Assembly (NCBI GenBank): GCA_021325635.1
Contig: JAJPGV010000034.1
Location: 60,745 to 124,744 of the forward strand
Direction of reading: 5' to 3'
DNA from: Chloroflexota bacterium
Lineage (GTDB): Bacteria; Chloroflexota; JAJPGV01
Length of the DNA stretch: 64,000 nucleotides
Within the stretch, counting starts at the first letter, position 1. Every line of letters begins with the position of its first letter. The notes under the pieces are model-generated. The model worked only from the letters and a program-made list of their open reading frames with translations. It was not told where the DNA came from and searched no databases. Both the position numbers and the translations under genes were made by a program. Shown here one piece after another: positions 5,471 to 56,214 of this stretch.

Positions 5471-5471
5471 C

Positions 5472-26254: not shown

Positions 26255-26288
26255 GGCGGCCGTCAGCGCGCCCTCGGAGCCGTCGGCC

Positions 26289-28406
26289 TCAATTGCCCCG
26301 ACCCAGCGCGCCGCGCACGACGCCGGCCACACGGCTCGCGTCCAGCTCTTCGAGTCGCAGGTACTGCCCGCCCATGTCGGCCGCCAGCGTCCGCGCCAGC
26401 CCGAGCCGCAGGCCCGGGCCACCTTCGGTATCGATGACCACCGACTGGATGCGCTTGTGCGCGAATTGCGCGCCCAGCAGGCGCGACTCAGCCACGGGGT
26501 CACCGCCCAGCAGCGAGACGTTGGGCCGTCCGTCCGAGATCAGCACGAACAGCGGTACGGCGTCACGATGCAGCGTCTTGTGGCGGTCGATCGTCACCAG
26601 CCCAAGCTGCAGGGCGTGGCTTAGGGGGGTACGGCCGCCGGTAGGCAGCTCGCGCAGCTGGCGCTCGGCCAGATCGACGCTGTTAGTCGGCGGCAGCAGC
26701 ACCTCGCCGAACCGACCACGGAAGGCGATCATACCCACCTCGTCGCGCTTCTGGTAGGCATCGAGCAGCAGCGACATGACCGCGCCCTTGGCCGCCGCCA
26801 TGCGGTCCATGGCTGCCATCGAGCCGCTGGCGTCCACGGCGAACAGGATCAGGTTGGCAAGCTTCGTCTCGCGGACCTTGACCCGAACGTCCTGGGCCAT
26901 TACGGCGACCTTTCTTGCGGCCGCCTTCCTGTCCCGCTGTCCCGGCGCGGACGAGGCAGGGTCCGTTCGCTGCTGAGCCCGCCGCAGGGCTGACGCCCGC
27001 AGGGTAGCGTCGAGCGCGAGGTCTTGCACCTCGCCGTCCGGCTCTCGGCTGCCGACGTAGTGCCCCTGCCGGCCCGAGAGGCGCAGCTTGGTCCTGCGGC
27101 CGGCGTGTGGCTGCGTGACGCGCTCGGCCTTGGAGGCTCCCAGTGGTCGCGGCTGCAGCCGCTGTCCGATGTCGAACACCCGGTCTTCGGTGTCCCCTCC
27201 AGCCGGGCCATCGCCACCGCCGAGGCCCTCGTCGCCATCCGGGCGGTCGAGGTGCTGACGGATCGTTTGGTCGAGCTGCTCGCGGTCCGCTTCGGGGGAC
27301 TGGAAGGGCTGACGCCGGCGGCGATGAGGCAGGGCCAGCTCGGCGGCCTGGCGCACGTCGTCGTCGTTGACCTCGACGCGTCCGTTGTAGGCGGCAATGG
27401 TGATGGCCGTCTTGTACATGACGATGTCGGCGCGCAGCCCGTCGACCTGGAAGCTCGAGCAGATGTGGGTGATGAGATCGAGCATGCGTTCGTCGAGCTG
27501 CACCTTCCCCAGCAGCCGTTGGGCGTGGGCGATGCGTCGCCGCTCGGCCCTCTCGGCAGGCTGCCAGGTATGCGCAAAGCGCGCCGGGCTGCGCTCGAAG
27601 GCAATGCGGCGCCGCACTACCTGCGCGCGGTCGGCGGGCGGCAGGTCTCCCGCGACGTCCACCGAAAGCGCGAAGCGGTCCAGCAGCTGCGGGCGCAGGT
27701 CGCCTTCCTCGGGGTTCATGGTGCCGACCAGCAGGAACTGCGCCGGGTGCTGGAAGGAGATGCCCTCGCGCTGCACGTAGTTGCGGCCCATGGCCGCGGC
27801 GTCAAGCAGCACGTCGACCAGGTGGTCGTTCAGCAGGTTGACCTCGTCGATGTACAGGATGCCGTGATTGGCGGCCGCCAGCAGTCCCGGCTTGAAGCGC
27901 ACGCTGCCCTTGGCCAGCGCACGGCCAACGTCCAGACTGCCGACTACACGATCGTCGGTCGCGCCGACAGGCATCTCCACGATCTCGACTGCGCGGCGCG
28001 TGGACGGGAGCGACAGCGCCGGCTTGGGGGCCCTCACGGGGGTGAGGGGCATGGGCTCCAGGGGTGGATCGGTCTCAACAGGGGGTGGCGCCGCGCGTTC
28101 GTGCTGCTTGGACACCTTCTTGGCTCGCCGGTCGGCCTCCTGGCGGTGCTCGGCCTGCAGCGGGCAGGACTCGCCCGGATGGCAGTTGTACGGGCAGCCG
28201 GGCGTGACCTCGATCTCCGGCAGGAGGTTGGCCAGGGCACGAACCGCGGTCGACTTGGCCGTGCCCTTCTCGCCGCGGATCAGCACGCCGCCGATCTTGG
28301 GGTTGATGGCGTTCAGGATCAGCCCGAGCTTCATCTGCTCCTGGCCTACCAGGGCGGTGAAGGGAAAGACGCAGCCCGCGCCGGAACTCCCTGCGCGGTC
28401 ACTCAC
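26289..28406 (-). CDS. Chelatase ATPase, fused ChlI-like AAA+ and ChlD-like vWA domains (CobN partner)
   Basis: 705 aa. N-terminal AAA+ with Walker A (GEKGTAKST) and Mg-chelatase subunit I-like sequence; acidic/Pro-rich linker; C-terminal vWA domain with MIDAS motif (VDASGSM). Confidence 0.85.
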   Translation of the reverse strand: MSDRAGSSGAGCVFPFTALVGQEQMKLGLILNAINPKIGGVLIRGEKGTAKSTAVRALANLLPEIEVTPGCPYNCHPGESCPLQAEHRQEADRRAKKVSKQHERAAPPPVETDPPLEPMPLTPVRAPKPALSLPSTRRAVEIVEMPVGATDDRVVGSLDVGRALAKGSVRFKPGLLAAANHGILYIDEVNLLNDHLVDVLLDAAAMGRNYVQREGISFQHPAQFLLVGTMNPEEGDLRPQLLDRFALSVDVAGDLPPADRAQVVRRRIAFERSPARFAHTWQPAERAERRRIAHAQRLLGKVQLDERMLDLITHICSSFQVDGLRADIVMYKTAITIAAYNGRVEVNDDDVRQAAELALPHRRRRQPFQSPEADREQLDQTIRQHLDRPDGDEGLGGGDGPAGGDTEDRVFDIGQRLQPRPLGASKAERVTQPHAGRRTKLRLSGRQGHYVGSREPDGEVQDLALDATLRASALRRAQQRTDPASSAPGQRDRKAAARKVAVMAQDVRVKVRETKLANLILFAVDASGSMAAMDRMAAAKGAVMSLLLDAYQKRDEVGMIAFRGRFGEVLLPPTNSVDLAERQLRELPTGGRTPLSHALQLGLVTIDRHKTLHRDAVPLFVLISDGRPNVSLLGGDPVAESRLLGAQFAHKRIQSVVIDTEGGPGLRLGLARTLAADMGGQYLRLEELDASRVAGVVRGALGRGN

Positions 28407-28412
28407 AGCTCG

Positions 28413-31400
28413 TCATGTCTCCGTCCTTACCTCCAGCGCGGCTTCCATCTGCAGGTATGCCCCCTGGAGGGCATCGCGCTGCTCCTGCGAGGGATTTTTC
28501 CACATTCCACGCTCTATGGCTTCGAGCAGCCGCTCGGCGATATTGCGCAGCGCCCAGGGGTTTTTCTCGGCGAAGAAGGCCTGCATCGCCGGGTCCTGGA
28601 CGTAAGCCTGGGTAGTCCGCTCGTACATCCAGTCCTCAACCACCTGGGCCGTGGCGTCGTAGCCGAACAGGTAGTCGACAGTAGCGGCCAGCTCGAACGC
28701 GCCCTTGTAGCCGTGGCGCTTGATCGACTCGATCCACTTGGGGTTGATCACGCGACTGCGAAAGACGCGGCGGGCCTCGTCGTCCAGGTCGCGCACGCGC
28801 ACCAGCGCGGGATTGGCGCTATCCCCGAAGAACTGCCGCGGATTCTTGCCGGTAAGGGCGCGAATCGTGGCGATCATCCCGCCGTGGTACTGCATGTAGT
28901 CGTCGCTGTCGAAGATGTCGTGCTCGCGGTTGTCCTGGTTCTTGGTGGCAATGGAGATCTCGCCGAAGCGCTGCTCGAACTGTGGCCGGGCGGGCTTTCC
29001 GTACTCTTCGCGCGTATACGCGAAGCCGCCCCAGGCGGTGTAGACCTCGGCCAGGTCCTGGTCCGAGGCCCAGTTGCGCGCGTCGAGCAGCGGAAGGATG
29101 CCGGCGCCGTAGGTTCCCGGCTTGCTGCCGAAGATGCGATACAGAGCCTCCGGGGTCGATCCGTCACGGCGATAATGCGCCGCCACAAGATTGCGCTCGT
29201 CGCTCTCGTCCAGGCGGGCCACCAGCCGGAAGGCGTCATCCAGGAGCTGCACCAGGTTGGGGAAGGCGTCGCGGAAGAAGCCGCTGATGCGCACCGTGAC
29301 GTCGATGCGCGGCCGGCCCAGCTCTTCAATGGGGATCAGCTCCACGCCGGTCACGCGGCGGTTCTCCTTCATCCACACCGGCCGTACGCCCAGCAGCCAC
29401 AGGATCTCGGCGACGTCGTCGCCCTGGGTGCGCATGGCCGAGGTGCCCCACACGACGATGCCCACCGACTCGGGGTAGCGGCCCTCCTCGGCCAGGTACT
29501 TGGCCAGCAGCGCGTCCCCGAGCTGACGGCCGATGTCCCAGGCAGCGGGCGACGGCAGGGTCTTGGGATCGACCGAATAGAAGTTGCGCCCGGTAGGCAG
29601 GACGCTGGCCATGCCCCTGGTCGGCGCCCCCGATGGGCCAGGCGGAATGAATCGACCTTCGAGCCCGGCCAGCAGGTTGTCGATCTCCTCGCCGGTTCGC
29701 GCCAGTGCCGGGATCAGGGATTGCTTGACATAAGAACTGGTCGAGCATGCATCCGCCGCGACGGACAGTGCTTGCTCGGCGTCCTGCATGCCGAGAGCGT
29801 CGGCGACGGCCCGGTCCACCGGCTGTCCGTCGACGATCGCCTGCACCAGCTGATGGTTGCGAGCTTCGATGTGCTCGACGGCGTCACCATTGGAGCGCAC
29901 GCCGTCCAACGGAGGCCCGGAATACGGAGCGCCACGGTCGGCCAGCAGCACGGCGTAGTCGGGAATACCCAGCGCCTCGGCCATCGAGCTGCGCAGCGAG
30001 GGGGCCTCGACGTTGTCCAGCCGGGTGAGGGCCAGCAGCAGATCGACCAGCTGTTCGCCTGCCGGCGCCTGCCCGAGGACGTGCAGGCCGTCCCGGATCT
30101 GGGAGTCTTTCAGCTCACACAAGTAGCCGTCGACGTGCAGCAGGAAACCGTCGAAGTCCTCAGGCAGCTCGTCCTCGCCCAGGTCGTGGTGGAGCTGTGC
30201 CTGCACGACTGCATCCCAGATCTGCCCGCGGATGATGGGCGCCTTGCGTGGGTCCAGCGTCTGCACCTGGTAGTACTCGTCCATCAGCTGCTCGATGCGC
30301 ACGATCTCGTTGTAGGCATCGGCGGTCGTCATGGCCGGAATGAGGTGGTCGACGATGGCGGCGTGGCTGCGCCGCTTGGCCTGCGCGCCCTCGCCGGGGT
30401 TGTTGATGATGAACGGGTAGAAATGCGGCAAGTCGCTGATGGCCAGCTCGGGGTAGCAGCTTGGCGACAAGCCCAACGACTTGCCGGGCAGCCATTCCAG
30501 CGTGCCGTGTTTGCCGACGTGCACAATCGCGTCGGCCTGAAAGACGTCACGGATCCAGCGGTAATAGGCCAGGTAGTGGTGCGTCGGCGGCAGATCCGGC
30601 GAGTGGTAGATGGCGATGGGGTTCTCTCCGAACCCGCGCGGCGGCTGCACCCCCAGAAAGACGTTGCCCAGCAAGATCCCAGGCATGGCGAGGGAGGGCT
30701 GACCCCTCTCCGCCAGGAACACCGTTCCGGGCGGAGAGCCCCAGGCTTCGACCAGCTCGCGCTGGTTGGTAGGTGGGAATTGGTCGAACCAGGCGCGATA
30801 CTGCGCCGCGCTGGCGTGGCCGGCGGCGTCCCGGAGCTGCTGCTCGGTAAGCATCTCGCGGTCGTTGGAGCAGCGATCGATGAGCTGGAACACCAGCTCG
30901 TCGCCCGATTCCGGGAGGTCGCCGGTGTCGTACCCAGCCCCTTGCATGGCCTTCAGCACTTCGAGCACCGAGGCCGGCGTATCCAGCCCCACGGCGTTGC
31001 CGATACGGGCGTTCTTGGTGGGGTAGTTGCTGAGCACGAAGGCCACGCGCTTCTGGGCGTTGGGTGTGCGCCGCAGCCTGGCCCAATTGCAGGCCAGGCG
31101 GGCGAAGGCGTCCACGCGCTCGCGGTCGGCCACGTAGCGTAGGACGGGACTGCCCAAGAGCTCATCCTGCGCCAGCTCCTCCTTGAACGACACGGGCACG
31201 GTGATGATGCTGCCGTCGAACTCCGGCAGCGCGACGTTCATGGCCGTGTCGATGGGGCTCAGGCCGGCCGAGCTGCGCTGCCAGGCCTCACGCGAGCTGG
31301 TGCTCACGATGGCTTGAAGCACCGGCACGTCCAGCCGCTGCAGCCACTCCACGGAGCCGGCGCCCATGGAGAAGCTGAGTGTGTTGATGATGGCGTCGAC

Positions 31401-44113: not shown

Positions 44114-44728
44114 CTAGAACCGCTCCTCCAGCCAGTCGACGGCGATGTCGACGGCCGCGTCCTCGCTTCGCGGTTTGAAGGAGTGGTCGCCGGGAACTAC
44201 CTCAGAGGTAAAGGGCATGCGCACCAGCTGCTGCACCTCCCGCAGGTGCTCGGGCCGGCAAAGGGCGTCGCGATCGCCGGTGATGAAGAGCATCGGCGCG
44301 GCGATCCGGCTCATATGCGACCAATCGCGCGGTTTGGCGTTCTTGGCCATCCCGTGCAGCGGAAGCCCGTAGAACACCAGCGCACTCACGTCTTCCCGCG
44401 CGGCGGCCACGTAGGAAGACACACGGGCGCCGAAGGATTTTCCCAGCAGCACCAGCGGGCCGCGGCCGGCCATATACGTGATGGCCTGCTCCAGCTCCGC
44501 CATTTCCCGCTTGCTGCCGGCCGATGGCGCTCGGCGCGCGGTCAAATAGCTGAAGTTCCAGCGCAGCACCGTGAAGCCGTCCTCAGCCAGCCGCAGCGCG
44601 GTCTTTTCCAGGAGGGGGGTATCGAGGCCCCGGCCTGCCCCATGACTGGCGATGACTGCCGCCCGCCGGCCGCCCTCCTGCAGCATGCCCTCCAGCCCTT
44701 CGCCAAAGTGCACCTGCGTCGTGGTCAT
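44114..44728 (-). CDS. Alpha/beta hydrolase (dienelactone hydrolase-like)
   Basis: G-x-S-x-G nucleophile motif (LLGKSFGA) and alpha/beta-hydrolase-like sequence; trimmed to ATG 44728 (MTTTQVHFGEG). Confidence 0.7.
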   Translation of the reverse strand: MTTTQVHFGEGLEGMLQEGGRRAAVIASHGAGRGLDTPLLEKTALRLAEDGFTVLRWNFSYLTARRAPSAGSKREMAELEQAITYMAGRGPLVLLGKSFGARVSSYVAAAREDVSALVFYGLPLHGMAKNAKPRDWSHMSRIAAPMLFITGDRDALCRPEHLREVQQLVRMPFTSEVVPGDHSFKPRSEDAAVDIAVDWLEERF

Positions 44729-44779
44729 GGAGCTTCGGGGCCATTGTAGCGGCGGCCGTCGCGCGCTAGACTCGGAGCT

Positions 44780-45134
44780 GCCAAGCAGGCCGGGCAATCG
44801 CGGACGCGCCTCAGGCCGTCCGAGGAAAGTCCGAGCTCCACAGGGCAGGATGCTGGGTAACACCCAGTGGGGGTGACCCCAGGAAAGTGCCACAGAAACA
44901 TACCGTCTGCCGCAAGGCAGATAAGGGTGAAACGGCGAGGTAAGAGCTCACCGGCAGCCGGGTGACCGGCTGGCCAGGCAAACCCCATCCGGAGCAAGAC
45001 CGAGCAGGGGCGGGTGGCCCGCCTATGCCCCGGGTTGGTCGCTGGAGACGGACGGTAACGGCCGTCCTAGAGGGATGATTGCCGGTCCGCTGGAAACGGC
45101 GGACTACAGAACTCGGCTTACAGGCCTGCTTGGC
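44780..45134 (+). ncRNA. rnpB: RNase P RNA (bacterial type A)
   Basis: Conserved regions read directly: GAGGAAAGTCCGAGCTCCACAGGGCAGG (CR-I), ATAAGGGTGAAACGGCGAGGTAAGAGCTCACC (CR-II/III), ACAGAACTCGGCTTACAGG (CR-V). P4 shows compensatory changes (GTCCGAGC with CTCGGC). P1 pairs GCCAAGCAGGCC with GGCCTGCTTGGC. Confidence 0.9.
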
Positions 45135-45143
45135 TGCCCTCCG

Positions 45144-45503
45144 TCAGTCGGTGAAGTCGATCTCCACGACAGCGTGGGCCGGCAGTCCGCATACGTCCGT
45201 CAAGAGGTCCTCGAGCTGGCTGGCCACGTTCCAGGATCGCTCGGCCTTGCTCACCGGGCGAAAGAAGGACTCGCCGTCCCGTTGAAAACGGAGATCTGCG
45301 AGCTCCGGCTGCTTGTCGGGGAGCACCGCGTCGGCGCTGACGTGAATGCCGTAGTTGTCCTCGGTGCGGGTGAGTCGCAGCCAGCATGAAGGCCGTTCGA
45401 CCGCATGGCAGCGCATCTCGCGACCGCGGCCTTTGGACAGCCGCTCCGTGGCTAGGTTGAAGGCCCCGATGCGGTCCAGCACGGAGTCGAAGCGTTCGGG
45501 CAT
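45144..45503 (-). CDS. Hypothetical protein (119 aa)
   Basis: ORF with balanced composition, starting just after the rnpB 3' end; no recognisable motif. Confidence 0.4.
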   Translation of the reverse strand: MPERFDSVLDRIGAFNLATERLSKGRGREMRCHAVERPSCWLRLTRTEDNYGIHVSADAVLPDKQPELADLRFQRDGESFFRPVSKAERSWNVASQLEDLLTDVCGLPAHAVVEIDFTD

Positions 45504-45559
45504 CTAGCCTCAGTGTAGGCAGGAAGGTCGAGGCCGGTCAATTACACTTCCAAGGCCGT

Positions 45560-46636
45560 ATGTATGTGGTGATCCTTGCCGGGGGAAGCGGCACCAGGTT
45601 GTGGCCGCGCAGCCGCAAGCAGCGTCCCAAGCACCTCCTGGATCTGGTCACCGAGCGGTCGCTGCTGCAGGAAACCTTCGAGCGCGTGAACCAGGTGGTG
45701 CCTGAGTCCAACATCCTGGTAGTGACCGAGCAATCGCATGCCGACGTCATTCGTGAGCAGCTGCCCTCGCTGCCAGCCCGCAACGTGCTGGTCGAGCCGA
45801 CACGACGGGGCACCGGCCCGGCGATTGGCTGGGCCGCGATCCATGTCAGGCAGCGCGATCCCGACGCGGTCATGGCCGTTTTCCCTTCCGATCATGTAAT
45901 CGTGCGGCGCGACGAGTTCCTGCGCCTGCTTGTGCTCGCCGCCGAGATGGCAGCCTCGACTGAGGCTCTGCTGACATTTGGCATCCAGCCGACCGAGCCC
46001 AGCACTGAGTTTGGCTACATCCATCGAGGGGCCGCGCACTCGCAGCGCGAGGGGTGGCAGGTGTACCGCGTGGAGTCCTTCAAGGAGAAGCCCAACGCGG
46101 ACCGGGCGCGCGAGTTCCTGGAGAGCGGCGAATACTACTGGAACAACGGCATGTTTTGCTCGAAGGCGGCCGTGATCCTGCAGGAGATCGAGCGTCTCAT
46201 GCCCGGTCTCGCTCGCGGGTTGGAGGTCCTGGCCGGAGCGATCGGCCGACCAGACGAAGCCGGGATCGTCGATACGGTGTATCCCCAGCTGCCGAAGGAC
46301 ACCATCGACTACGGGGTGCTGGAGAAGGCCGGCAACGTGCTGGTCATTCCGGCCAACATCGGCTGGAGTGACGTCGGCACCTGGTCGGCCCTGCTCGACG
46401 TGCTGTCGGACGGCGCGGACGGCAACGTGGCCCTTGGATCATGCCAGCACGTGGCCATCGATACGCATCGCACGCTGGTGGCCAGCGCCAACAAGCTGGT
46501 CGCCACAATTGGTGTGGAGGACTTGATCGTGGTCGATTCGGAGACAGCGCTGCTGGTCTGCCGCCGAGACCGCGCCGCCGACGTGAAACGGATCGTCGAA
46601 CAGCTGGAGGCCGAACAGCGGGATGAGTACCTGTAG
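45560..46636 (+). CDS. manC: Mannose-1-phosphate guanylyltransferase (GDP-mannose pyrophosphorylase)
   Basis: Nucleotidyltransferase motif VILAGGSGTRLWPRSR and full-length similarity; 358 aa. Confidence 0.85.
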   Translation: MYVVILAGGSGTRLWPRSRKQRPKHLLDLVTERSLLQETFERVNQVVPESNILVVTEQSHADVIREQLPSLPARNVLVEPTRRGTGPAIGWAAIHVRQRDPDAVMAVFPSDHVIVRRDEFLRLLVLAAEMAASTEALLTFGIQPTEPSTEFGYIHRGAAHSQREGWQVYRVESFKEKPNADRAREFLESGEYYWNNGMFCSKAAVILQEIERLMPGLARGLEVLAGAIGRPDEAGIVDTVYPQLPKDTIDYGVLEKAGNVLVIPANIGWSDVGTWSALLDVLSDGADGNVALGSCQHVAIDTHRTLVASANKLVATIGVEDLIVVDSETALLVCRRDRAADVKRIVEQLEAEQRDEYL

Positions 46637-46660
46637 AGCCGGGAGGCGGGGAGCAGCCGA

Positions 46661-47959
46661 ATGATCGAGCGCTATTCGCACCCCGAGATGGCTCGGGTGT
46701 GGTCTATCGAGAACCGCACCGATCAGTGGCTGAAGGTCGAGCAGATGGTGGTGCAGGTGCGCTTCGAGCGCGGCGAGGTGCCGGCTGAAGCCAACGAGAT
46801 TGTCCAAACGCAGGCGCGTTACGACCTGGCGCGCATGGACGAGATCGAGCGGGAGACGCACCACGATCTGGTGGCCTTTGTGCGCTGTGTCGGCGAGTCG
46901 ATTGGCGATGCGTCACGCTACGTGCACGTCGGTCTCACCTCGACCGACGTGGTCGATACCGGCCTGTCGGTGCAGATTGCCCAGGCCACCGACATCCTCG
47001 AGCGCGACGTCCAAGAAGTCATCGCTACGCTGGAGAGGCTGGCACTTCAGTACAAGTACACGCCCATCATGGGCCGCAGCCACGGCATGCACGCCGAGCC
47101 CAGCAGCTTTGGGCTGAAGATGGCGCTGTGGATAGACGAGATGCGCCGCAACGCCACCCGGCTGCGCCAGGCGCGGGAGCAAATCGCGGTGGGCAAGATC
47201 TCGGGCGCCGTCGGCACCCACGCCAACGTCGAGCCGGAGATCGAGGAGGCGGTGTGCGCCAAGCTGGGCCTGCGCGCGGCGCCCATCTCCACCCAAACGC
47301 TGCAGCGCGACCGGCACGCGCACTACATGTCCACGCTGGCCATCATCGGCACTTCTCTGGAGAAGATGTCCACCGAGATCCGCCACCTGCAGCGGACCGA
47401 GGTGGGCGAGGTCGAAGAGCCGTTCGAGACCGGTCAGGCCGGCTCGTCGGCCATGCCGCACAAGCGCAATCCCAGGCTCAGCGAACGGGTCTGCGGGCTC
47501 TCCCGCGTCGTTCGAGGCTATGCCCTGGCCGCGCTGGAGGACGTTGCCCTGTGGCACGAGCGGGACATCTCGCATTCGTCGACCGAGCGCATCATCCTGC
47601 CCGATGGCTGCCTGGCCCTGGACTACATGCTGCGGACCTTCAATCGGATCATGAAAGGGCTGGTCGTCAAGCCCGATCGTATGCTGGCCAACCTCGAAAT
47701 GCTCCATGGCGTGATCTTCTCGGAACGCGTCCTGCACGCCTTGATCGATGCCGGGATGAGCCGCACCGATGCCTACTACCTCGTCCAGCGGGCTGCGCAC
47801 GAAGCCATGGACCACAATGTCAGCTTCCGCGAGCGGCTGGTGGCCGAACCTTCCATCCGAGAACGGCTGACGGACGAGCGGCTGGACGATCTGTTTGGTT
47901 ACGACTACCACCTGAGGCACGTCGACACCGCCTTCCGGCGCATTGGCCTCGATTCTTGA
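46661..47959 (+). CDS. purB: Adenylosuccinate lyase
   Basis: 432 aa with fumarate-lyase signature (GSSAMPHKRNP) and PurB-like sequence throughout. Confidence 0.95.
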   Translation: MIERYSHPEMARVWSIENRTDQWLKVEQMVVQVRFERGEVPAEANEIVQTQARYDLARMDEIERETHHDLVAFVRCVGESIGDASRYVHVGLTSTDVVDTGLSVQIAQATDILERDVQEVIATLERLALQYKYTPIMGRSHGMHAEPSSFGLKMALWIDEMRRNATRLRQAREQIAVGKISGAVGTHANVEPEIEEAVCAKLGLRAAPISTQTLQRDRHAHYMSTLAIIGTSLEKMSTEIRHLQRTEVGEVEEPFETGQAGSSAMPHKRNPRLSERVCGLSRVVRGYALAALEDVALWHERDISHSSTERIILPDGCLALDYMLRTFNRIMKGLVVKPDRMLANLEMLHGVIFSERVLHALIDAGMSRTDAYYLVQRAAHEAMDHNVSFRERLVAEPSIRERLTDERLDDLFGYDYHLRHVDTAFRRIGLDS

Positions 47960-49073
47960 TCCGCTGTGGGCGCCTAACGACCAGCAGGTCCTGTTCCACG
48001 GTCGCGTAGGCGCGCTGCGCCTGGCCGATGGGCGATCCCTGGTCGTCGAGGGGGCAGCTAGCCGGATCGACGACTCGCCAGCAGAGCCACCGGACAACAG
48101 CGTTGCCGCCCCAGACCGCTCGCTGCCGGTCAGGCGGCCTGCGTACCTGAATGCCGTGCCCCTGTTCGCACCGCATGTCCCGGATGCGGAAGCCGGCAGC
48201 TGGGATGACATCGCGCCCGAGCTGTGGGCCAGCCGATTGGAGCCGGACAGCTTCGTGCGCCAGGATCCCTACACCGGCGGTCTGCTCCGCGTCTGCCAGG
48301 CACTGCGCTGGGCGGCGGTTGCGGACCTCGATCCGCTGGCGGTTTCGTTCAGCCTCAGCTATGGCGATGGAGGGTCCCCGGAAGCGCAGTACCAGCTGAC
48401 CAGGTGCGTTCAGGGCGCGGCCGATGCGCTCGCCATGGCTGGCCTGGCGGCGGTGTCGGGCGAAATCGAGTGCGCGGAGGCTGGAGCGGATCCGAACTTG
48501 CGCATCTGGCTGCACGGCGCGGCGGGATCGGTGTCATCGGCGGGTGAGATCGGCAGCCGGCGAGAAGCGCAAGGGGCGCGTTCGTGGTTCGCCGACTCTG
48601 GCTCTGCCATCGTGCATCTCGGCCGCGCGACGAGCGATCTGAGCGGCAGCCTCTACCTGGAGCGCCGTGGGGTACAGGAGACACTGCCTCCGCCGATCGA
48701 CTTGATTGCCGAGGGCCGGGTGCTGGAGGTCGTTCGCGAGGCTCGAGGGCTGGGGCTCCTCCAATCACTCAGGCCGGTTGGTCGTGGCGGCCTGCTGATA
48801 ACATTGGCGCTGTGCTGCGCTCAGCTGGGGCTGGGTGCCGAGACCGCGGTTCCTGAGGCGTGGAGCTCCATCGACCCGGCGGCAGTCCTGTTCGGCGAAG
48901 CGCAGTCGAGGTTTCTGGTATCAGTCGCGCCAGATGATGTGCCGCGCCTGCAGCAGATCGCCGGTGCGATCGGCGTGCCGGCGCTGACGTTGGGAACGAC
49001 CGGTGGCGCCGATCTGACGGTGGGCAGTCTGATACACATCGCGGGGAGGGTGCTTAAGGAATGGCCGATCTGA
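47943..49073 (+). CDS. PurM-superfamily (AIR synthase-related) protein of unclear function
   Basis: 376 aa. C-terminal region (LFGEAQSRFLVSVAPDDVPRLQQIAGAIGVPALTLGTTGG) resembles AIRS C-terminal domains of PurL/PurM-type proteins; too short to be a PurL. Overlaps the purB stop by 17 nt. Confidence 0.5.
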   Translation: MASILDPLWAPNDQQVLFHGRVGALRLADGRSLVVEGAASRIDDSPAEPPDNSVAAPDRSLPVRRPAYLNAVPLFAPHVPDAEAGSWDDIAPELWASRLEPDSFVRQDPYTGGLLRVCQALRWAAVADLDPLAVSFSLSYGDGGSPEAQYQLTRCVQGAADALAMAGLAAVSGEIECAEAGADPNLRIWLHGAAGSVSSAGEIGSRREAQGARSWFADSGSAIVHLGRATSDLSGSLYLERRGVQETLPPPIDLIAEGRVLEVVREARGLGLLQSLRPVGRGGLLITLALCCAQLGLGAETAVPEAWSSIDPAAVLFGEAQSRFLVSVAPDDVPRLQQIAGAIGVPALTLGTTGGADLTVGSLIHIAGRVLKEWPI

Positions 49074-49420
49074 ACACAATGCTGGAGCGCTTCACAGCGA
49101 TCGAGGGCGTAACCCTGGCGGCGGTCGTCGGCACCGATGGTTTGGTGATCGAGAGCGCAGGCAAACCCGAATTCGACGTGGAGGCGGTGAGCGCCGTGGC
49201 AACGAGCGCGCTGGGATCGGCCCAAGCGCTGTCGGAGGAAGTCACCCGCGGCGCACTGACGCAGGCCATGGTCGAATTCGAGAGAGGCGTCGTTGTCCTG
49301 GAGCCGGTGGGCGAGCTCGGCGTGCTGGTGGTCCTCACCGAGAGTGTGTCGAACATCGGCCGGGTAAGGCTGGTGGCTCGTCGCGAACGCGAAGCGCTGG
49401 AGCAGGCTCTGGCGTCTTAA
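49061..49420 (+). CDS. Roadblock/LC7 (MglB-like) domain protein
   Basis: 119 aa with a Roadblock/LC7-like pattern (AAVVGTDGLVIESAG ... LGVLVVLTESVSNIGRVRL); overlaps the upstream gene by 13 nt. Confidence 0.65.
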   Translation: MADLNTMLERFTAIEGVTLAAVVGTDGLVIESAGKPEFDVEAVSAVATSALGSAQALSEEVTRGALTQAMVEFERGVVVLEPVGELGVLVVLTESVSNIGRVRLVARREREALEQALAS

Positions 49421-49532
49421 CGTCTTCTTCGGGGGCAGTCGCTGCTAACATCGAGAGAGTCGCGACTGGCGCTAAGGTGGAGCACCACCGGGGAGCGACC
49501 GTGGAAATTGCCGCGCGCCTGGGCACATCAAG

Positions 49533-51065
49533 ATGTTCGGGAGACAGCGCGTGAGAGTCCTCATCTCAGTTTGGGATAAGACCGGCCTGGTCGACTTCGC
49601 CCGACGCCTGGCAGCACTCGACGTTGGGCTGGTGTCCAGCGGCGGCACGGCGGCGGAGCTGCGGTCCGCCGGCTTGAAGGTGCAGGAAGTGGCCGACGTC
49701 GCCGGCTTTCCCGAGATCCTGGGTGGACGCGTCAAGACGCTGCACCCGGCCATCCACGGCGGCATCCTGGCCCGCCGCGACGATCCGGAGCACATGGAGC
49801 AGCTGGAGCGGCACGGTATTACGCCCATCGACATGGTGGTCTGCAACCTCTATCCCTTTGCCGAGGACCCGTCGATTGAAATGATTGATATCGGTGGGGT
49901 AGCGTTGATCAGGGCCGCGGCCAAGAACCATGATTCGGTGGCCGTGGTGGTCGATCCGGCCGATTACGACGTCGTCCTGGCGGAGCTCGAGCTCCACCAT
50001 GAGGTGAGCGAGCCCACGCGGCGGCGGCTGGCCGAAGCAGCCTTTGGTATGACCTCGGCCTACGACGCGCGCATCGCGGGGTGGTTCAATCGCGGCAACC
50101 GGAAGCTGTTTCCGCGGCGGCTTGCCCTGCCGATGGAGAAGCAGCTCGACCTGCGCTACGGTGAGAACCCGCACCAGCAGGCGGCCTTCTACTCAACCCC
50201 CACCGCCGGTGACTATCCGTCGCTGGCCCGTATGCGCCAGCTTCACGGCAAGGAGCTGTCGTTCAACAACCTGCTGGACATGGACGCCGCCGTCAATTGC
50301 GCGTCCGCGTTCTCAGAGCCATGCATCGCCATCATCAAGCACAACAATCCCTGCGGACTGGCGGTCAGGGAGCAGCTGGACGAGGCTTATCGCCAGGCGC
50401 TGGCCGGCGATCCTGTGTCTGCCTTTGGAAGCGTCATCGGCAGCAATCGGATCGTAGATGCAGCCACGGCTCGCGAAATGAGCCAGCTGTTCATCGAAGT
50501 GATCGTGGCGCCCGGCTTCGACGCCGAGGCGGCTGAGGTTCTCGGCGCCAAGAAGAACATTCGCCTGGTAGAGCTGCCGGGGGATTGGGCGGAGCAGCCC
50601 GATCCCTTCCGCGATCTTGACATAAAGCGTGTAAGAGGTGGCTTCCTCGTGCAGTCACTGGACTTCGATAGCCGGGATCTGGGCTGGACGGTCGTTACCA
50701 GGCGCCAGCCAACGGCCGTCGAAAGCGAGCAGCTTCGGTTCGCCTGGAAGGTGGTGCGACACGTGAAGTCCAATGCCATCGTGCTGGCCAAGGACACGAT
50801 GGTCGTGGGGATAGGGCCGGGACAGATGAGCAGGGTGGAATCGACCGACATCGCCGTGAAGAAGGCTGGCGAGCGGGCCACCGGGGCGGTGCTCGGCTCC
50901 GACGCGTTTTTCCCGTTCCCGGATGGTCTGGAGCACGCCATCGAGGCCGGCGTCACGGCGGCGATCCAGCCGGGCGGCGGCGCCCACGATAGCGACGTCA
51001 TCGCCGCTGCCGACCGGGCAGGCATCGCCATGGTCTTCACCGACGAGCGGCACTTCAAGCACTGA
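49533..51065 (+). CDS. purH: Bifunctional AICAR transformylase / IMP cyclohydrolase
   Basis: 510 aa with PurH N-terminal MGS-like (LISVWDKTGLVDFA) and C-terminal AICARFT regions. Confidence 0.95.
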   Translation: MFGRQRVRVLISVWDKTGLVDFARRLAALDVGLVSSGGTAAELRSAGLKVQEVADVAGFPEILGGRVKTLHPAIHGGILARRDDPEHMEQLERHGITPIDMVVCNLYPFAEDPSIEMIDIGGVALIRAAAKNHDSVAVVVDPADYDVVLAELELHHEVSEPTRRRLAEAAFGMTSAYDARIAGWFNRGNRKLFPRRLALPMEKQLDLRYGENPHQQAAFYSTPTAGDYPSLARMRQLHGKELSFNNLLDMDAAVNCASAFSEPCIAIIKHNNPCGLAVREQLDEAYRQALAGDPVSAFGSVIGSNRIVDAATAREMSQLFIEVIVAPGFDAEAAEVLGAKKNIRLVELPGDWAEQPDPFRDLDIKRVRGGFLVQSLDFDSRDLGWTVVTRRQPTAVESEQLRFAWKVVRHVKSNAIVLAKDTMVVGIGPGQMSRVESTDIAVKKAGERATGAVLGSDAFFPFPDGLEHAIEAGVTAAIQPGGGAHDSDVIAAADRAGIAMVFTDERHFKH

Positions 51066-51135
51066 GATCAGGAATGTGGGGCGCGGGGCTGCGATAATGA
51101 ACCTTCATGATTTTCATCGGGCGAGGGCCGCGTGC

Positions 51136-52392
51136 ATGCGAGTAGCCGTGCTCAGCGTTCATACCTCACCCCTGGCGCGATTGGGCAGTCACGATTCGGG
51201 CGGCATGAACGTCTACGTTCGGCGGCTCAGCGAGGAGCTGGGACGTTTCGGCGTGGCGGTCGACGTCTTCACCCGGCGCTCGGATGGTCACGCCCCCACG
51301 GTGGTCGATTTCGGGCCGAACGCGCGGCTCATTCACGTCAAGGCCGGGCCGGCGCGTTACGTCAGCAAGCGCGACCTGCTCGACTATCTGCCCGAGTTCG
51401 TGTCCGGGGTCAAGCGGTTTGGGGAATCGGTCCCGGACGGCTACGACCTGGTGCACGGCCACTACTACCTGTCGGGCTGGGCCGGCGCGGTGCTGGCCCA
51501 TTGCTGGCAGGTCCCGCACGTGCAGAGCTTCCACACGCTGGCCCGAGTGAAGAACAGCGCCCTGCCTGGTGCCATCGCGCCCGAAGGCGCGGAGCGAATC
51601 GATATCGAAGCTAAGGTCATGGCCAGCGCCGATCGCATCATCGCCACCAGCCCCAGTGACCGGCAGGACATGATCCGCCACTACGGCGCTGCCCCGCAGC
51701 GCGTCAGCGTCATTCCGCCCGGCCTCGATCTGGGCCTGTTCCACCCGCTCGACCGCGACGCCACGAAACGGGCGCTCGGTCTGGAGGGCTGTCGGGTAGT
51801 GCTGTTCGTGGGCCGAATGGACCGTATCAAGGGCCTGGAAACGCTGCTGCGCGCCGCGCGAGAGCTGTTGAGCGCCGACGCCGCGCTGCAGCTCCGGGTC
51901 TTGATCGTGGGCGGCGATCGCCAGGTGCGAGTCGTCGACGACGCCTCGCGCGAGCTCACGCGCATCCGGGCGCTGGTACGCGAGCTTGGCCTCCTGAAGA
52001 CCGTGAAATTCGTTGGCCCCAAGGAGCAGCACGAGCTGCCGGCCTACTATTCCGCGGCCGACGTATGCGCCGTACCGTCCTATGCCGAGTCGTTCGGCAT
52101 GGTAGCCCTCGAAGCCATGGCCTGCGGGACTCCGGTGGTGGCGTCACGGGTGGGTGGGCTCATCTCGACCATCGTCGACGGTGAGACGGGCTTTCTGGTT
52201 TCCAGCCACAACCCGCCGGAGTTTGCGCGCCGCGTTCGCCAGATCCTGGACGACCCGGGGCTGCAGGCGCGTTTGGGGAAGGCCGGCGTGGAGGTGGCCG
52301 CGGGATATCGTTGGCCAAACGTGGCCCGCCAGCTGGAAGCTGCATACCGGTCGCTGATCAGCCTCCCGGTGATATCGCAGCGCGCCAGCTGA
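51136..52392 (+). CDS. GT4 family glycosyltransferase (MshA-like retaining GT-B)
   Basis: N-terminus MRVAVLSVHTSPL...GGMNVYV resembles MshA-type GT4 enzymes; C-terminal GT4 motif (ESFGMVALEAMACGTPVVA). Trimmed from ORF-track start 50923. Confidence 0.85.
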   Translation: MRVAVLSVHTSPLARLGSHDSGGMNVYVRRLSEELGRFGVAVDVFTRRSDGHAPTVVDFGPNARLIHVKAGPARYVSKRDLLDYLPEFVSGVKRFGESVPDGYDLVHGHYYLSGWAGAVLAHCWQVPHVQSFHTLARVKNSALPGAIAPEGAERIDIEAKVMASADRIIATSPSDRQDMIRHYGAAPQRVSVIPPGLDLGLFHPLDRDATKRALGLEGCRVVLFVGRMDRIKGLETLLRAARELLSADAALQLRVLIVGGDRQVRVVDDASRELTRIRALVRELGLLKTVKFVGPKEQHELPAYYSAADVCAVPSYAESFGMVALEAMACGTPVVASRVGGLISTIVDGETGFLVSSHNPPEFARRVRQILDDPGLQARLGKAGVEVAAGYRWPNVARQLEAAYRSLISLPVISQRAS

Positions 52393-52440
52393 ACGTTACA
52401 GGAGTATGCCGGTTAGGGCCTTGATTCACCGAGCTCCGAC

Positions 52441-53937
52441 ATTGTCCGGAGCAAACTGACGAAGATACTCATCGCCGCGGCGGAGGCGGTCCCCTTCGCC
52501 AAGGTTGGCGGCCTGGCCGACGTCGTTGGGGCCCTTCCCAAGGCGCTGAAACGGCTGGGCCATGACGTTCGCGTGGTCATGCCGAAGTACCAGCGGGTGT
52601 CGGACGAGAAATTCGGAATCCGAACGCGAATACGAGGCCTGCCGGTGCCCCTGCAGGGGAATATCGAGCGCGCCGACGTCAAGGAGTGCAGCATCGGCGC
52701 GGACGTGCCGGTGTACTTCATCGACAACCAGCGCTTCTTCGGCCGGGAGGGCGTGTACGGCTACCCCGACGATGATGAGCGCTTCATCTTCTTCTCCCGC
52801 GCGCTGCTGTCCATGCTGCCGGCGCTTGACTGGCAGCCGGACGTGGTGCACTGCAACGAGTGGCACACGGCCATCATTCCCAACTGGCTGAAGACGATCT
52901 ACGCGGAACATCCCAGCGCTGGCTCCATGGCGACCGTGTTCACGGTGCACAACCTGGCCTACCAGGGCATCTTCGGCCACCGCGTGCTGGAGATCGCCGG
53001 CATCGGCTCGTTCGGTTTCGTCTACGCCGACCAGGGTGGCGAGGGCCAGGCCGTTGGCCTCCTCGGAAGAGGCCTGCAGTTCGCCGACGCCATCAGCACG
53101 GTGAGCGAGCAATACGCGCGCGAGATTCAGACCCCCGAGTTCGGACACGGCATGCACGAGGTCCTGCGGCAGCGTCGAGATCGTCTCTCAGGCATTCTCA
53201 ATGGCCTTGACTACGACGAGCTCGACCCCGCACAAGACGTCCACATCGCGGAGAGGTTCGACGCCTCGACGCTCGATCGCCGACCTCTCAACAAGACCGC
53301 GCTGCAGGCTGAGGCCGGCCTGCCGATTGACGCCAACGCGCCGCTCATCGGCATGATCACCAGGCTGACCGATCAGAAGGGCTTGGACATTCTCTCGCAG
53401 GCACTGGACGGACTGCTGGCGCAGCCGCTGCAAATGGTCATCCTGGGAACCGGTGACCAGCGCTACCACGAGCTGCTCTCAGCGGCGGTCAAGCGGCACC
53501 CCAACCTGGCCGTGTTCCTGACGTTCAGCACGCCGCTGGCGCAGAAGATCTATGCCGGCAGCGACCTGTTCCTCATGCCATCCCGTCTCGAACCGTGCGG
53601 CCTGGGGCAGCTCATCGCCATGCGTTACGGCAGCGTGCCTATTGTGCGCAGCACCGGAGGCCTGGCGGACACGGTGCTCGACTATGACCCGAGCAGCGGT
53701 GAGGGCAGCGGCTTCGTCTTCCAAAGGTACGCGTCGATGGATCTCTTCGCCGCCGTCATCCGGGCGATCGAGAATTACAAGCAGCGAGACGCCTGGCGCC
53801 GCCTGATGGAGTACGACATGCGCCTCGACTTCTCATGGACAGTGTCGGCGCAGAAATACGTCGACGTCTACCACCGGGCCATGAGCTGGCGCCGTCAGGA
53901 AACGTCGACGCCCGATGCGATGCCCCAGCCGGCCTAG
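52441..53937 (+). CDS. glgA: Glycogen (starch) synthase GlgA; start codon unresolved
   Basis: GlgA-like throughout, including N-terminal KILIAAAEAVPFAKVGGLADVVGALP. That conserved segment lies upstream of the first in-frame ATG/GTG (52573) and after an in-frame TAG at 52414-52416, so the true start is non-canonical or the sequence is imperfect. Confidence 0.8.
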   Translation: MVRSKLTKILIAAAEAVPFAKVGGLADVVGALPKALKRLGHDVRVVMPKYQRVSDEKFGIRTRIRGLPVPLQGNIERADVKECSIGADVPVYFIDNQRFFGREGVYGYPDDDERFIFFSRALLSMLPALDWQPDVVHCNEWHTAIIPNWLKTIYAEHPSAGSMATVFTVHNLAYQGIFGHRVLEIAGIGSFGFVYADQGGEGQAVGLLGRGLQFADAISTVSEQYAREIQTPEFGHGMHEVLRQRRDRLSGILNGLDYDELDPAQDVHIAERFDASTLDRRPLNKTALQAEAGLPIDANAPLIGMITRLTDQKGLDILSQALDGLLAQPLQMVILGTGDQRYHELLSAAVKRHPNLAVFLTFSTPLAQKIYAGSDLFLMPSRLEPCGLGQLIAMRYGSVPIVRSTGGLADTVLDYDPSSGEGSGFVFQRYASMDLFAAVIRAIENYKQRDAWRRLMEYDMRLDFSWTVSAQKYVDVYHRAMSWRRQETSTPDAMPQPA

Positions 53938-54040
53938 ACAAGGGCGAAGAGGGCCGGCAGACGTGTTAGGATCGCTGTCGCTGCCCTCTTGATGGACATT
54001 GACTTATATTGATCGGACTGGTACGATGGGCAGAGGCACA

Positions 54041-54064
54041 CGCTTGATTAGTGTTGATCAAGCG
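54041..54064. promoter_or_regulatory. Perfect 8-bp inverted repeat (candidate operator) upstream of citrate synthase
   Basis: cgcttgat-tagtgttg-atcaagcg, 26 nt upstream of the citrate synthase ATG, in an unusually AT-rich stretch. Confidence 0.3.
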
Positions 54065-54089
54065 ACCGATTTACGGCGAGGTAAATGAC

Positions 54090-55220
54090 ATGGCAACTGC
54101 TCCCACCAACACAGCCGGACTGCAGGACGTCGTTGCTGCGACCTCATCCATCTGCTTCCTGGACGGCAAGCAGGGCAAGCTGCTGTATCGCGGGTACGAC
54201 ATTCACGATCTGGCGGCGCACGCCAGCTTCGAAGAGGTGGCTTACCTGCTGTGGCACGACGATCTGCCCACGCAGGGCCAGCTCGATGAGCTGAATGCCT
54301 CACTCGTGGCCAAGCGAGACATTCCCGAGGCGGTGACCAAGCTGCTGGAATCGCTGCCGAAGACGGCCACCCCCATGGAGCTGCTTCGAACGTCTGTTTC
54401 GGCCCTATCGGCCTACGATCCTGACGGGCGCGACAACTCGCTGCCGGCCAGCCTGCGCAAAGCGGAGCGACTGGCCGCTCAGATGCCGACCATCACCGCC
54501 TACATCCACCGGCTGCGCCAGGGCGAGCCCCTGGTTCACCCGCGGAAGACGGGGAACACCGCTGAGAACTTCCTGTACATGATGTTCGGTAAAGAGCCGG
54601 ACGAGCTCAGCTCCCGCACCATGAACGTAGCCCTGGTGCTGCACGCGGACCATGAGCTCAACGCCTCCACCTTCGCCGCCAGAGTGACGGCGGCGACCTT
54701 GTCCGACATGTATGCCGCCATCACCTCGGGTATCGGCGCCCTGGCCGGGCCGCTGCATGGTGGGGCCAACGAAGAGGTCATGAAGATGCTCCTCAAGATC
54801 GGCGACGAGTCGCGGGTGGAGGCCGAGGTCAAGGGTATTTTTGAGCGGCACGAGAAGATCTCCGGCTTCGGGCACCGCGTCTATCGCACCGAAGATCCGC
54901 GGGCTACCCATCTGCGCCAGCTGTCCGAGGAGCTGGGCCGGCGCGCCGGGAACCTGAAGTGGTTCAACATGTCACGCCACATCGAGCAGCTGGTGATGCA
55001 GGAAAAGAAGCTGTACTGCAACGTGGACTTCTATTCGGCGTCCACCTACTACACGATGGGTATCCCCATCGAGCTGTACACGCCGATCTTCGCCTGCAGC
55101 CGCATCAGCGGCTGGTCCGCCCACGTCCTCGAGCAGCTTGGCAACAACCGGCTCATTCGGCCGGTGGCCGAGTACACCGGGCCCACCGACCTGGTGTACC
55201 GTCCGATCAGCCAGCGCTAG
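54090..55220 (+). CDS. gltA: Citrate synthase
   Basis: Citrate synthase signature (GFGHRVYRTEDPRA) and full-length similarity; ATG 54090 preceded by GAGGT. Confidence 0.9.
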   Translation: MATAPTNTAGLQDVVAATSSICFLDGKQGKLLYRGYDIHDLAAHASFEEVAYLLWHDDLPTQGQLDELNASLVAKRDIPEAVTKLLESLPKTATPMELLRTSVSALSAYDPDGRDNSLPASLRKAERLAAQMPTITAYIHRLRQGEPLVHPRKTGNTAENFLYMMFGKEPDELSSRTMNVALVLHADHELNASTFAARVTAATLSDMYAAITSGIGALAGPLHGGANEEVMKMLLKIGDESRVEAEVKGIFERHEKISGFGHRVYRTEDPRATHLRQLSEELGRRAGNLKWFNMSRHIEQLVMQEKKLYCNVDFYSASTYYTMGIPIELYTPIFACSRISGWSAHVLEQLGNNRLIRPVAEYTGPTDLVYRPISQR

Positions 55221-55284
55221 GGGCGCTGCTCGGTATATCAGGGGATCGAGGTAACGGACCGGCGCCTGTCTCGTTAGCACTCGC

Positions 55285-56214
55285 GTGACCCTATCGGAGG
55301 CGCGCCAGGAATTCCTGGACTATCTGGCCGAGCGGAACAAGTCCCTGCGCACCGTGCGCACCTATGGCTTTGCCATCAACAAGTTTCTGTCGTTCGCCGA
55401 GACGCAGGGCTTGACCGCGGAGGCTGAGGCCGGCGGTGTGGACAGCCGGCTGCTTCGAGCCTACAGCCGCCATCTTTTCCACCAGCGGCTGTCCGCCAGC
55501 GGCCGCAAGACCTACCTGGTAGCGCTGACGGCCTGGTTCAAGCATCTGGCCGCCGCCGAGGTGTGCCAGGTCAATACCGACGCCATCGAGCTGCCCAAGG
55601 TCACGCCCGAGCCGCCGAGCCCCGATGAGCGCCTCCCCGATCTGCTCCGGGGCGACCCTCCGCCGTTCCAGTCGGCCGACCAGGAGCTGTCCTGGCTTCG
55701 GGATCGCGCGCTGCTCAGGGTGCTGTTCGATACCAACGCCCGTGTGTCCGAGGTTGCGGCCCTGAACAGGCAGTCGGTCGACTTCGAGAAGGGGCTGGCC
55801 GTCATCGTCGGCAAAGGGGGCAAAGTTCGGACGGTGTTCTTTTCCGATCCCTGCCTGGAGGCCGTCAACCGCTATCTCGACGCGAGGAATGACGACTTCG
55901 ACCCGATTTTCGTTCGACATAACGTTGCCAGGAAGGCCGAGCGTGTCGATCGGGATGGGAACGTGCTGCGGCTGTCGGTCAGGTCCATCCAATTGATCGT
56001 GCGCAAGTACGCTCGACGAGCTGGCATCCGCGCCACGCCGCACTCGTTCCGCCATTACGGCGGGACCGAGATGGTGAGGTCGGGCGCCGACATTCGCAGC
56101 GTGCAGGAGTACCTCGGACACAAGAGCGTGTCGACGACACAGATCTACACGCACGTGTCGCCTCAGCGGCTGATGGACGAGTGGAAGCGCTTCCACCCGG
56201 CAGGGAATACCTAG
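55285..56214 (+). CDS. Tyrosine site-specific recombinase (XerC/XerD-like)
   Basis: N-terminal SAM-like domain and C-terminal catalytic region with HSFRHYGG and GHKSVSTTQIYTHV (catalytic Tyr). Confidence 0.85.
   Translation: MTLSEARQEFLDYLAERNKSLRTVRTYGFAINKFLSFAETQGLTAEAEAGGVDSRLLRAYSRHLFHQRLSASGRKTYLVALTAWFKHLAAAEVCQVNTDAIELPKVTPEPPSPDERLPDLLRGDPPPFQSADQELSWLRDRALLRVLFDTNARVSEVAALNRQSVDFEKGLAVIVGKGGKVRTVFFSDPCLEAVNRYLDARNDDFDPIFVRHNVARKAERVDRDGNVLRLSVRSIQLIVRKYARRAGIRATPHSFRHYGGTEMVRSGADIRSVQEYLGHKSVSTTQIYTHVSPQRLMDEWKRFHPAGNT

Follow-up and report, generated by a model that had tools for sequence, protein, structure and literature searches.

In a 64,000-nucleotide (nt) stretch of the genome of a Chloroflexota bacterium (assembly GCA_021325635.1, contig JAJPGV010000034.1, positions 60,745 to 124,744; hereafter the window), the purine biosynthesis genes purB and purH flank two genes that encode a 376-amino acid (aa) protein, which we call X, and a 119-aa Roadblock/LC7 protein. 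Judging from sequence alignments, X matches the C-terminal ~55% of a small PurL (the tail of domain B1, the linker, and domains A2-B2), without the catalytic A1-B1 half and without the first β-hairpin of A2. The X–Roadblock gene pair is real, conserved, and previously undescribed. We give an even chance to the idea that X is a non-catalytic PurL-derived pseudoenzyme that makes up, with an orphan Roadblock protein, an accessory or regulatory pair produced together with PurB. The first part of this idea, i.e., the origin of X and its status as a pseudoenzyme, we hold with much higher confidence than the complex and its role.

Two overlapping genes between purB and purH

A preliminary description of this DNA had placed two extra genes between canonical copies of purB and purH, with overlaps at both junctions, and both observations stand. 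The purB gene (46661–47959, + strand) encodes an adenylosuccinate lyase that scores as an equivalog (517 bits for TIGR00928, with a cut-off of 326) and displays Lyase_1 and ADSL_C domains. Likewise, purH (49533–51065, +), which encodes 5-aminoimidazole-4-carboxamide ribonucleotide (AICAR) formyltransferase/inosine monophosphate (IMP) cyclohydrolase, is an equivalog with 684 bits for NF002049 (cut-off 402). The gene for X (47943–49073, +) shares its first 17 nt with the end of purB and starts with a TTG codon that, upon inspection of the sequence, has no clear Shine-Dalgarno motif. The Roadblock gene (49061–49420, +) overlaps X by 13 nt, and its Shine-Dalgarno motif, which reads GGAGG in the sequence, lies within the 3' end of X (49045–49049, +), 11 nt before the ATG.

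X aligns with the C-terminal part of PurL

X has a PurM fold with A-like and B-like domains. It contains an AIRS_C domain (Pfam, 40.8 bits, residues 219 to 355) and a borderline AIRS domain (24.1 bits vs. a cut-off of 24), which covers profile positions 30 to 97 of 112. An AlphaFold2 (AF2) model shows the overall fold with a mean predicted local distance difference test (pLDDT) of 80.7 and a predicted template modeling (TM) score of 0.85. In residues 1 to 100, pLDDT ranges from 41 to 84, and the N-terminal strands of the model are of uncertain equivalence. For the PurL equivalogs TIGR01736 and NF002290, X scores 99.3 vs. 648 bits and 94.2 vs. 525.75 bits, respectively. Its AIRS_C domain, together with PurL scores far below the cut-offs, bears out the earlier view of X as a member of the PurM superfamily other than an ordinary PurL, PurM, ThiL, or HypE.

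Where X matches PurL, it matches the C-terminal part. Residues 103 to 359 align with positions 447 to 695 of the 723-position NCBIfam PurL profile, the best sequence match in the PDB is to residues 452 to 697 of Thermus thermophilus PurL, and the A2-B2 region compared with PurL fragments using hhalign gives a probability of 99.8. When 1.84 billion representative proteins were searched using HMMER, the X family was discrete, with members scoring 300 to 474 bits and full-length PurLs at most 182 bits. For the best of these PurLs, the alignment begins at positions 24 to 54 of the X-family profile, corresponding to PurL residues ~340 to 360, and is collinear to the C terminus. We also aligned X with 20 PurLs, each cut after the SESQERM motif. 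In this alignment, X is collinear with PurL from the last B1 strands through the linker and then through A2 and B2 to the C terminus, but it skips ~45 residues ("QYDxxV...PGGDAAV") that form the first A2 β-hairpin of PurL. The linker of X contains an RRPAYLD motif that is also found in the linkers of the closest PurLs.

These comparisons divide X into three segments. Residues 1 to 100 (47943–48242, +), which include the sequence PVRRPAYL, appear B1-tail/linker-like on the basis of HMMER collinearity, with a linker P of 0.04 in hhalign; conservation is low here, and some members of the family lack parts of it. Residues 101 to 200 (48243–48542, +) are A2-like without the first β-hairpin, as judged by hhalign (99.8) and alignment column counts. 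Residues 217 to 376 (48591–49070, +) are B2-like, as judged by the Pfam AIRS_C match; this is the best-conserved part of X, and PurL motifs are kept or modified in it as PPPIDLxAE, RGGLL, and LFGEAQSRF. Overall, the PurL pseudo-half is clearly a closer match to X than PurM, ThiL, HypE, or SelD are. The catalytic A1-B1 half is not hidden upstream, because that DNA is occupied by purB, and on sequence grounds X cannot be a FGAM (phosphoribosylformylglycinamidine) synthetase on its own.

Another alignment was considered, in which MAFFT paired the N terminus of X with the A1 hairpin and the B1 motif RRPAVQVGNPF, making X a PurL with two internal deletions. This was rejected because 1) in hhalign the B1 motif has P = 0.46 and A1 is not matched, whereas the collinear linker has P = 0.04, 2) HMMER aligns the best PurLs collinearly with X, and 3) RRPAYLD is a genuine PurL linker motif.

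The same representative search returned P0054, an 891-aa PurL in which A1 carries an insertion of ~170 residues between GNC and IGVPTV; the insertion ends in HNC and looks like an intein.

Most PurL-conserved residues have been replaced in X

The A2-B2 half of PurL is itself non-catalytic: its sole nucleotide is an "auxiliary" ADP, considered to be structural or a vestige, and the ATP-binding signature of the PurM superfamily is DX4GAXP (PMC13013826). A2 carries the auxiliary nucleotide pocket and loops at the glutaminase interface, and Asp679 of Salmonella PurL has been placed at the auxiliary ADP (PMC3815217). We quantified what is left of this half in X using the 82 columns that are at least 90% conserved in the C-regions of the 20 PurLs. 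X keeps 23 of them, 45 are changed, and 14 are deleted. We take D679, E718, N722, and D884 of the Salmonella enzyme to be the auxiliary Mg-ADP ligands, of which D679 is the one confirmed by PMC3815217. The first A2 hairpin of the PurM fold helps to build the central barrel with A1.

Among the PurL motifs, GNVSxYNE is lost in X, as is GGDAAV, whose "DAA" hairpin is deleted. In AEAARN, Glu is changed to Gln and Asn to variable residues, while HDxS(D/E)GG reads PxGRGG, which is an acid-to-Arg reversal. The signature DX4GAXP has become (D/E)PYTGG[LAM][IL]R in the X family, i.e., D-x4-G is kept, A-x-P is replaced, and an invariant Arg has been introduced. Twelve columns are invariant or nearly so in the family and differ from PurL (W95, R98, D102, Y110, T111, R116, M165, R228, D232, R281, P304, and W307), and invariant Arg residues have been gained in the region of the former auxiliary nucleotide pocket. 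Since the PurL-conserved residues around the A2 auxiliary nucleotide site are mostly lost, X is most likely a pseudoenzyme. The preliminary description had seen in X a PurM-fold ATP-dependent enzyme and proposed looking for PurM active-site residues. X is specifically a non-catalytic C-terminal part of PurL, and with the catalytic A1-B1 half absent, the signature degenerate, the A2 hairpin deleted, and most PurL-conserved residues replaced, that proposal now appears unlikely.

The 119-aa protein is an orphan Roadblock

The 119-aa protein is a genuine Roadblock/LC7 protein, as first described. It matches Robl_LC7 (PF03259) with 53.3 bits vs. a gathering threshold of 23, and its AF2 model, arranged as α-β-β-α-β-β-β-α, is a complete Roadblock fold. 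The best PDB match is a Thorarchaeota Roadblock (7F8M), with a phmmer E value of 5e-12 and 32% identity in the Foldseek alignment. The closest structures found by Foldseek are Asgard-archaeal Roadblocks, MglB, and MglC, with TM scores of 0.72 to 0.77. It is not an MglB equivalog, with 24.1 bits for NF052242 where 200 are required. Its orthologs show 63 to 80% identity. Among 14 orthologs the mean column identity is 82%, and a C-terminal RLVARRER stretch is invariant.

Roadblock is surrounded by manC-like, purB, X, purH, GT4, GT5, and citrate synthase genes, and no small GTPase is found within four genes of it or, using Pfam, among 37 open reading frames (ORFs) of the window. The missing GTPase noted at the outset is thus real, but its oddness was overstated. 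In a survey of 749 prokaryotic MglB/Roadblock homologs, 328 were orphans with no MglA within four genes, none of which was characterized (PMC4316618). Our literature search found no published link between Roadblock proteins and purine synthesis.

The pair is confined to one clade, at the ancestral place of purL

How widespread is this gene pair? The X family comprises about nine 50%-identity clusters among the 1.84 billion proteins, and X and its Roadblock are present only in metagenome-assembled genomes (MAGs) labeled Chloroflexota. A contig scan recovered X in only two GTDB species representatives, plus unrelated PurLs. In 10 distinct members, whose X proteins are 36 to 50% identical to that of the window, the arrangement and the 17-nt overlap are the same, the gene order being rnpB, small ORF, manC-like gene, purB, X, Roadblock, purH, GT4, and GlgA-like gene. 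Because this arrangement recurs in all the relatives examined, it is not a chance ORF or a local misannotation. Roadblock adjoins X in every X locus retrieved but is found within 8 kb on either side of none of 78 canonical purL genes, and Roadblock and purH also abut or overlap in three relatives (L005, L006, and L089). The preliminary description would have given up its case had the pairing not been conserved in relatives or had X scored as an ordinary family member; the neighborhood comparison shows a conserved pairing, and X is no such member.

An outgroup arrangement is offered by a Dormibacteraceae MAG (L078, JBOHUX010000013.1, 3154–13164), in which overlapping genes make up a complete operon of the Bacillus type, purB-purC-purS-purQ-purL-purF-purM-purN-purH. 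By tblastn, the PurL nearest to X is from another Dormibacterota MAG (L010). When compared to L078, X occupies the place of purC, purS, purQ, and purL, and Roadblock that of purF, purM, and purN. Because of this position, X most simply looks like an in-place remnant of purL. In the simplest history, a deletion would have run from the purB terminus to a point midway through purL; the remaining 3' part would have stayed in frame, to be read from a new TTG start. No further pur genes were detected in the 64-kb window by Pfam in the 37 ORFs, tblastn with PurL fragments matched only X, and purQ and purS are in none of the X loci examined.

X is under purifying selection

DNA encoding X and Roadblock is identical between the window and L007 and among L002, L003, and L004. 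Since such close pairs carry no selection signal, we used more distant ones and calculated the ratio of nonsynonymous to synonymous substitution rates (dN/dS) by the Nei-Gojobori method in seven genome pairs. With dS ~1, the values are rough: 0.27 to 0.46 for X, 0.12 to 0.20 for purB, and 0.10 to 0.18 for Roadblock. Identity to relatives in syntenic loci is 45 to 63% for X, 74 to 86% for PurB, 64 to 72% for PurH, and 61 to 81% for Roadblock. The ORF of X is intact in all ~20 family sequences, and 48 columns are invariant across 15 X sequences, while its N terminus and one loop vary in length among family members. These findings show that X is under purifying selection and not a dead gene and that the Roadblock gene is as constrained as purB.

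Control of purH and gene neighborhood

The 112-nt gap between Roadblock and purH contains a ZMP/ZTP riboswitch aptamer (pfl motif; 49452–49531, +), which matches the full Rfam model RF01750 (positions 1 to 86) with 59.8 bits vs. a gathering threshold of 39. A single nucleotide separates the aptamer from the first ATG of the purH ORF. The true start of purH is possibly a GTG at 49551, which is preceded by GGGAGA and fits the start of the PurH profile better than the first ATG. With the riboswitch in front, purH has its own control element, and purB-X-Roadblock form an overlapping unit. The riboswitch is also found in L088 (11260–11335, 48.1 bits). RF01750 is absent from L001, L003, L005, and L006, where Roadblock and purH are 6 to 90 nt apart, abutting, or overlapping.

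Upstream of purB lies a manC-like nucleotidyltransferase gene (45560–46636, +), an ORF whose syntenic counterparts in relatives have NTP_transferase and ManC_GMP_beta-helix Pfam matches. It shows 65 to 76% identity to relatives and is the upstream member of the conserved cluster, overlapping purB by 4 nt in several of them. A syntenic block (45144–56214) shared with the 10 distinct relatives embeds the purine genes among GDP-sugar and glycan genes. Its other members are a 119-aa ORF on the – strand with no Pfam match (45144–45503), a GT4 glycosyltransferase (~51097–52392), a GlgA-like GT5 protein (52573–53937), citrate synthase (54051–55220), and a tyrosine recombinase (55285–56214). In front of the block, class A RNase P RNA (rnpB; 44782–45136, +, 286 bits) overlaps the 5' end of a mechanically called ORF (44114–44893, –). 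It is at the same upstream place in the six relatives with sequence that far (L001, L002, L003, L005, L006, and L088).

Elsewhere in the window there are 1) a row of genes for a GAF-PAS histidine kinase, a response regulator, and a receiver-GGDEF-EAL protein (3836–7709, +), 2) a cobalamin-biosynthesis cluster with CbiX, CbiD, and two tetrapyrrole methylases, one of which is fused to a class I methyltransferase domain (21838–26503, –), and 3) a 1372-aa mechanically called ORF (27024–31142, +) that has a GC1 of 0.87 and a translation resembling the antisense of a real gene and is probably no gene.

Discussion

In the explanation that we favor, X would descend from the gene for small PurL (FGAM synthetase subunit II) by loss of the first ~330 codons, encoding the catalytic A1-B1 half, and of about 45 codons for the first A2 β-hairpin. 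X and Roadblock, the latter probably a dimer, would be made together with PurB via translational coupling and would form a non-catalytic complex that serves purine metabolism as an accessory, adaptor, scaffold, sensor, or regulatory module. In such a complex, Roadblock would be a dimeric interaction platform, and X would offer a surface for docking or ligand binding that resembles PurL, as hinted at by the A2 loops and nucleotide pocket of PurL (PMC3815217) and by the invariant Arg residues gained in the pocket region of X. A more specific version, which we consider rather unlikely, is a purine-status module: the former Mg-ADP pocket of X, rebuilt with Arg and Trp, would bind but not convert a nucleotide or a phosphorylated intermediate of purine synthesis, and the orphan Roadblock dimer would signal the state of the pocket to another protein, for instance PurB, PurH, a glutaminase of the PurQ type, or a GTPase encoded elsewhere. 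Such a module might connect the supply of purines or GTP with the cluster's GDP-mannose and glycan genes, and X would then be the first defined non-GTPase partner of a bacterial orphan Roadblock protein.

Several findings weigh against a non-catalytic X working with Roadblock. All the carriers of X belong to one syntenic clade, so that the adjacency of the two genes partly reflects shared ancestry and is not independent functional evidence. The invariant acidic D232, the DxxxxG motif, and several new Arg residues might allow some form of phosphate or nucleotide binding, and "non-catalytic" is a prediction. Finally, X evolves two to three times faster than its neighbors and is rich in indels, which also fits a gene drifting to loss.

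This last point bears on the view of X as a decaying relic with little function of its own, the frame of which stays open mainly for translational coupling from purB to Roadblock (and purH), in a lineage that may even have lost de novo purine synthesis and may retain purB for adenosine monophosphate (AMP) synthesis and purH for AICAR recycling. X is indeed the fastest-evolving gene of the cluster, with a variable N terminus and variable loops, and has a weak TTG start without clear Shine-Dalgarno motif, whereas Roadblock has its own GGAGG. Moreover, purC, purS, purQ, purF, purM, and purN are missing from their ancestral position, and the window has no other pur genes. We nevertheless think a relic unlikely, because the dN/dS of X is well below 1 in pairs with dS ~1, its invariant columns include the 12 family-specific ones unlike PurL, and an ORF that is intact in ~20 sequences has a confident AF2 fold. 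Selection on X would also fit an active ATP-dependent enzyme of the PurM superfamily that is regulated by Roadblock, as first proposed, and that would act as a homodimer and catalyze a new purine-related step. X does have the PurM fold with A-like and B-like domains, and it keeps DxxxxG and an invariant D232 in a B-domain loop. However, it derives from a PurL pseudo-half that was already non-catalytic, the hairpin with the conserved Asp of DAA is deleted, [LAM][IL]R stands in for the AXP of the signature, and Glu and Asn of AEAARN and the acidic residue of SDGG are replaced, the latter by Arg. Together with a fast and indel-rich evolution that would be unusual for a core enzyme, this makes an active X highly improbable.

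That the A2-B2 half is non-catalytic and structural in genuine PurL (PMC13013826) would fit X being still the structural C-half of a two-piece FGAM synthetase, with the catalytic N-half encoded elsewhere and Roadblock perhaps replacing PurS. X occupies the ancestral place of purL among purine genes, A2 loops take part in the contact with the glutaminase, and PurS, too, is a dimeric adaptor of small size (PMC3815217). We find this split very unlikely, since the A2 β-hairpin is deleted, just 28% of the PurL-conserved columns survive, and purQ and purS are not near X. Half of an essential enzyme should match purB and purH of the same genomes in conservation, but X, with 45 to 55% identity, is far more divergent, and no half-size N-terminal PurL was seen, albeit without a genome-wide search. 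Alternatively, Roadblock might serve an unlinked small GTPase as an MglB-like GTPase-activating protein or guanine nucleotide exchange factor, its place beside X and the pur genes being historical and no X–Roadblock complex existing. Its closest structures are MglB, MglC, and Asgard Roadblocks, orphan MglB homologs are common (328/749; PMC4316618), and the much higher conservation of Roadblock suggests a main partner that is more conserved than X. This is quite unlikely in our view. As an MglB equivalog, Roadblock reaches 24 of the required 200 bits, there is no GTPase within four genes or among the 37 ORFs scanned, and Roadblock strictly co-occurs and overlaps with X in all loci but is absent beside the 78 canonical purL genes.

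A non-catalytic X paired with Roadblock would be of interest on several counts. A core biosynthetic gene, purL, would have been cut to its non-catalytic half and yet retained under selection, with its ancestral operon position still identifiable; bacterial pseudoenzymes of traceable origin are, to our knowledge, rare. Nearly half of prokaryotic MglB/Roadblock homologs have no neighboring GTPase, and none of these had been characterized by 2014 (PMC4316618). The orphan described here always stands beside one particular non-GTPase gene, the product of which is a candidate partner. The locus is restricted to a single narrow clade and makes one ask whether de novo purine synthesis has been rearranged or lost in these uncultured soil Chloroflexota.

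Comparison with known systems

When compared to small PurL (TIGR01736/NF002290; 3VIU, 1VK3, 2HS0, and 3D54), which has two A-B repeats (A1-B1-A2-B2) in ~600 to 750 aa, X is half the length. It has no A2 hairpin, no A1, and little of B1, the latter two of which bear the catalytic His residues and the site for ATP and formylglycinamide ribonucleotide (FGAR). In X, 72% of the conserved columns of small PurL are changed or deleted, and its score is ~15% of the equivalog cut-off. It also has neither purQ nor purS as a neighbor, whereas the outgroup L078 has both. PurM, ThiL, HypE, and SelD keep the DX4GAXP signature, which X does not, and carry on their first hairpin acidic metal ligands that X does not have.

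The 119-aa protein shares its full fold and size with the Roadblock/LC7-MglB family, which includes MglB, MglC, CvnB of the conservons, Asgard Roadblocks, and LAMTOR2/3. It differs from these in the setting of its gene, which has no adjacent MglA-type or Rag-type GTPase or conservon genes and is locked to a PurL-derived gene in a purine operon. A small protein from a comparable setting is PurS, which forms homodimers and corresponds to the N-terminal domain of large PurL (PMC3815217). PurS (PF02700) belongs to another fold and family than Robl_LC7 and has no sequence relationship with it; the analogy is only one of position, since PurS and the Roadblock described here are both small proteins encoded beside a PurL-type gene in a pur operon.

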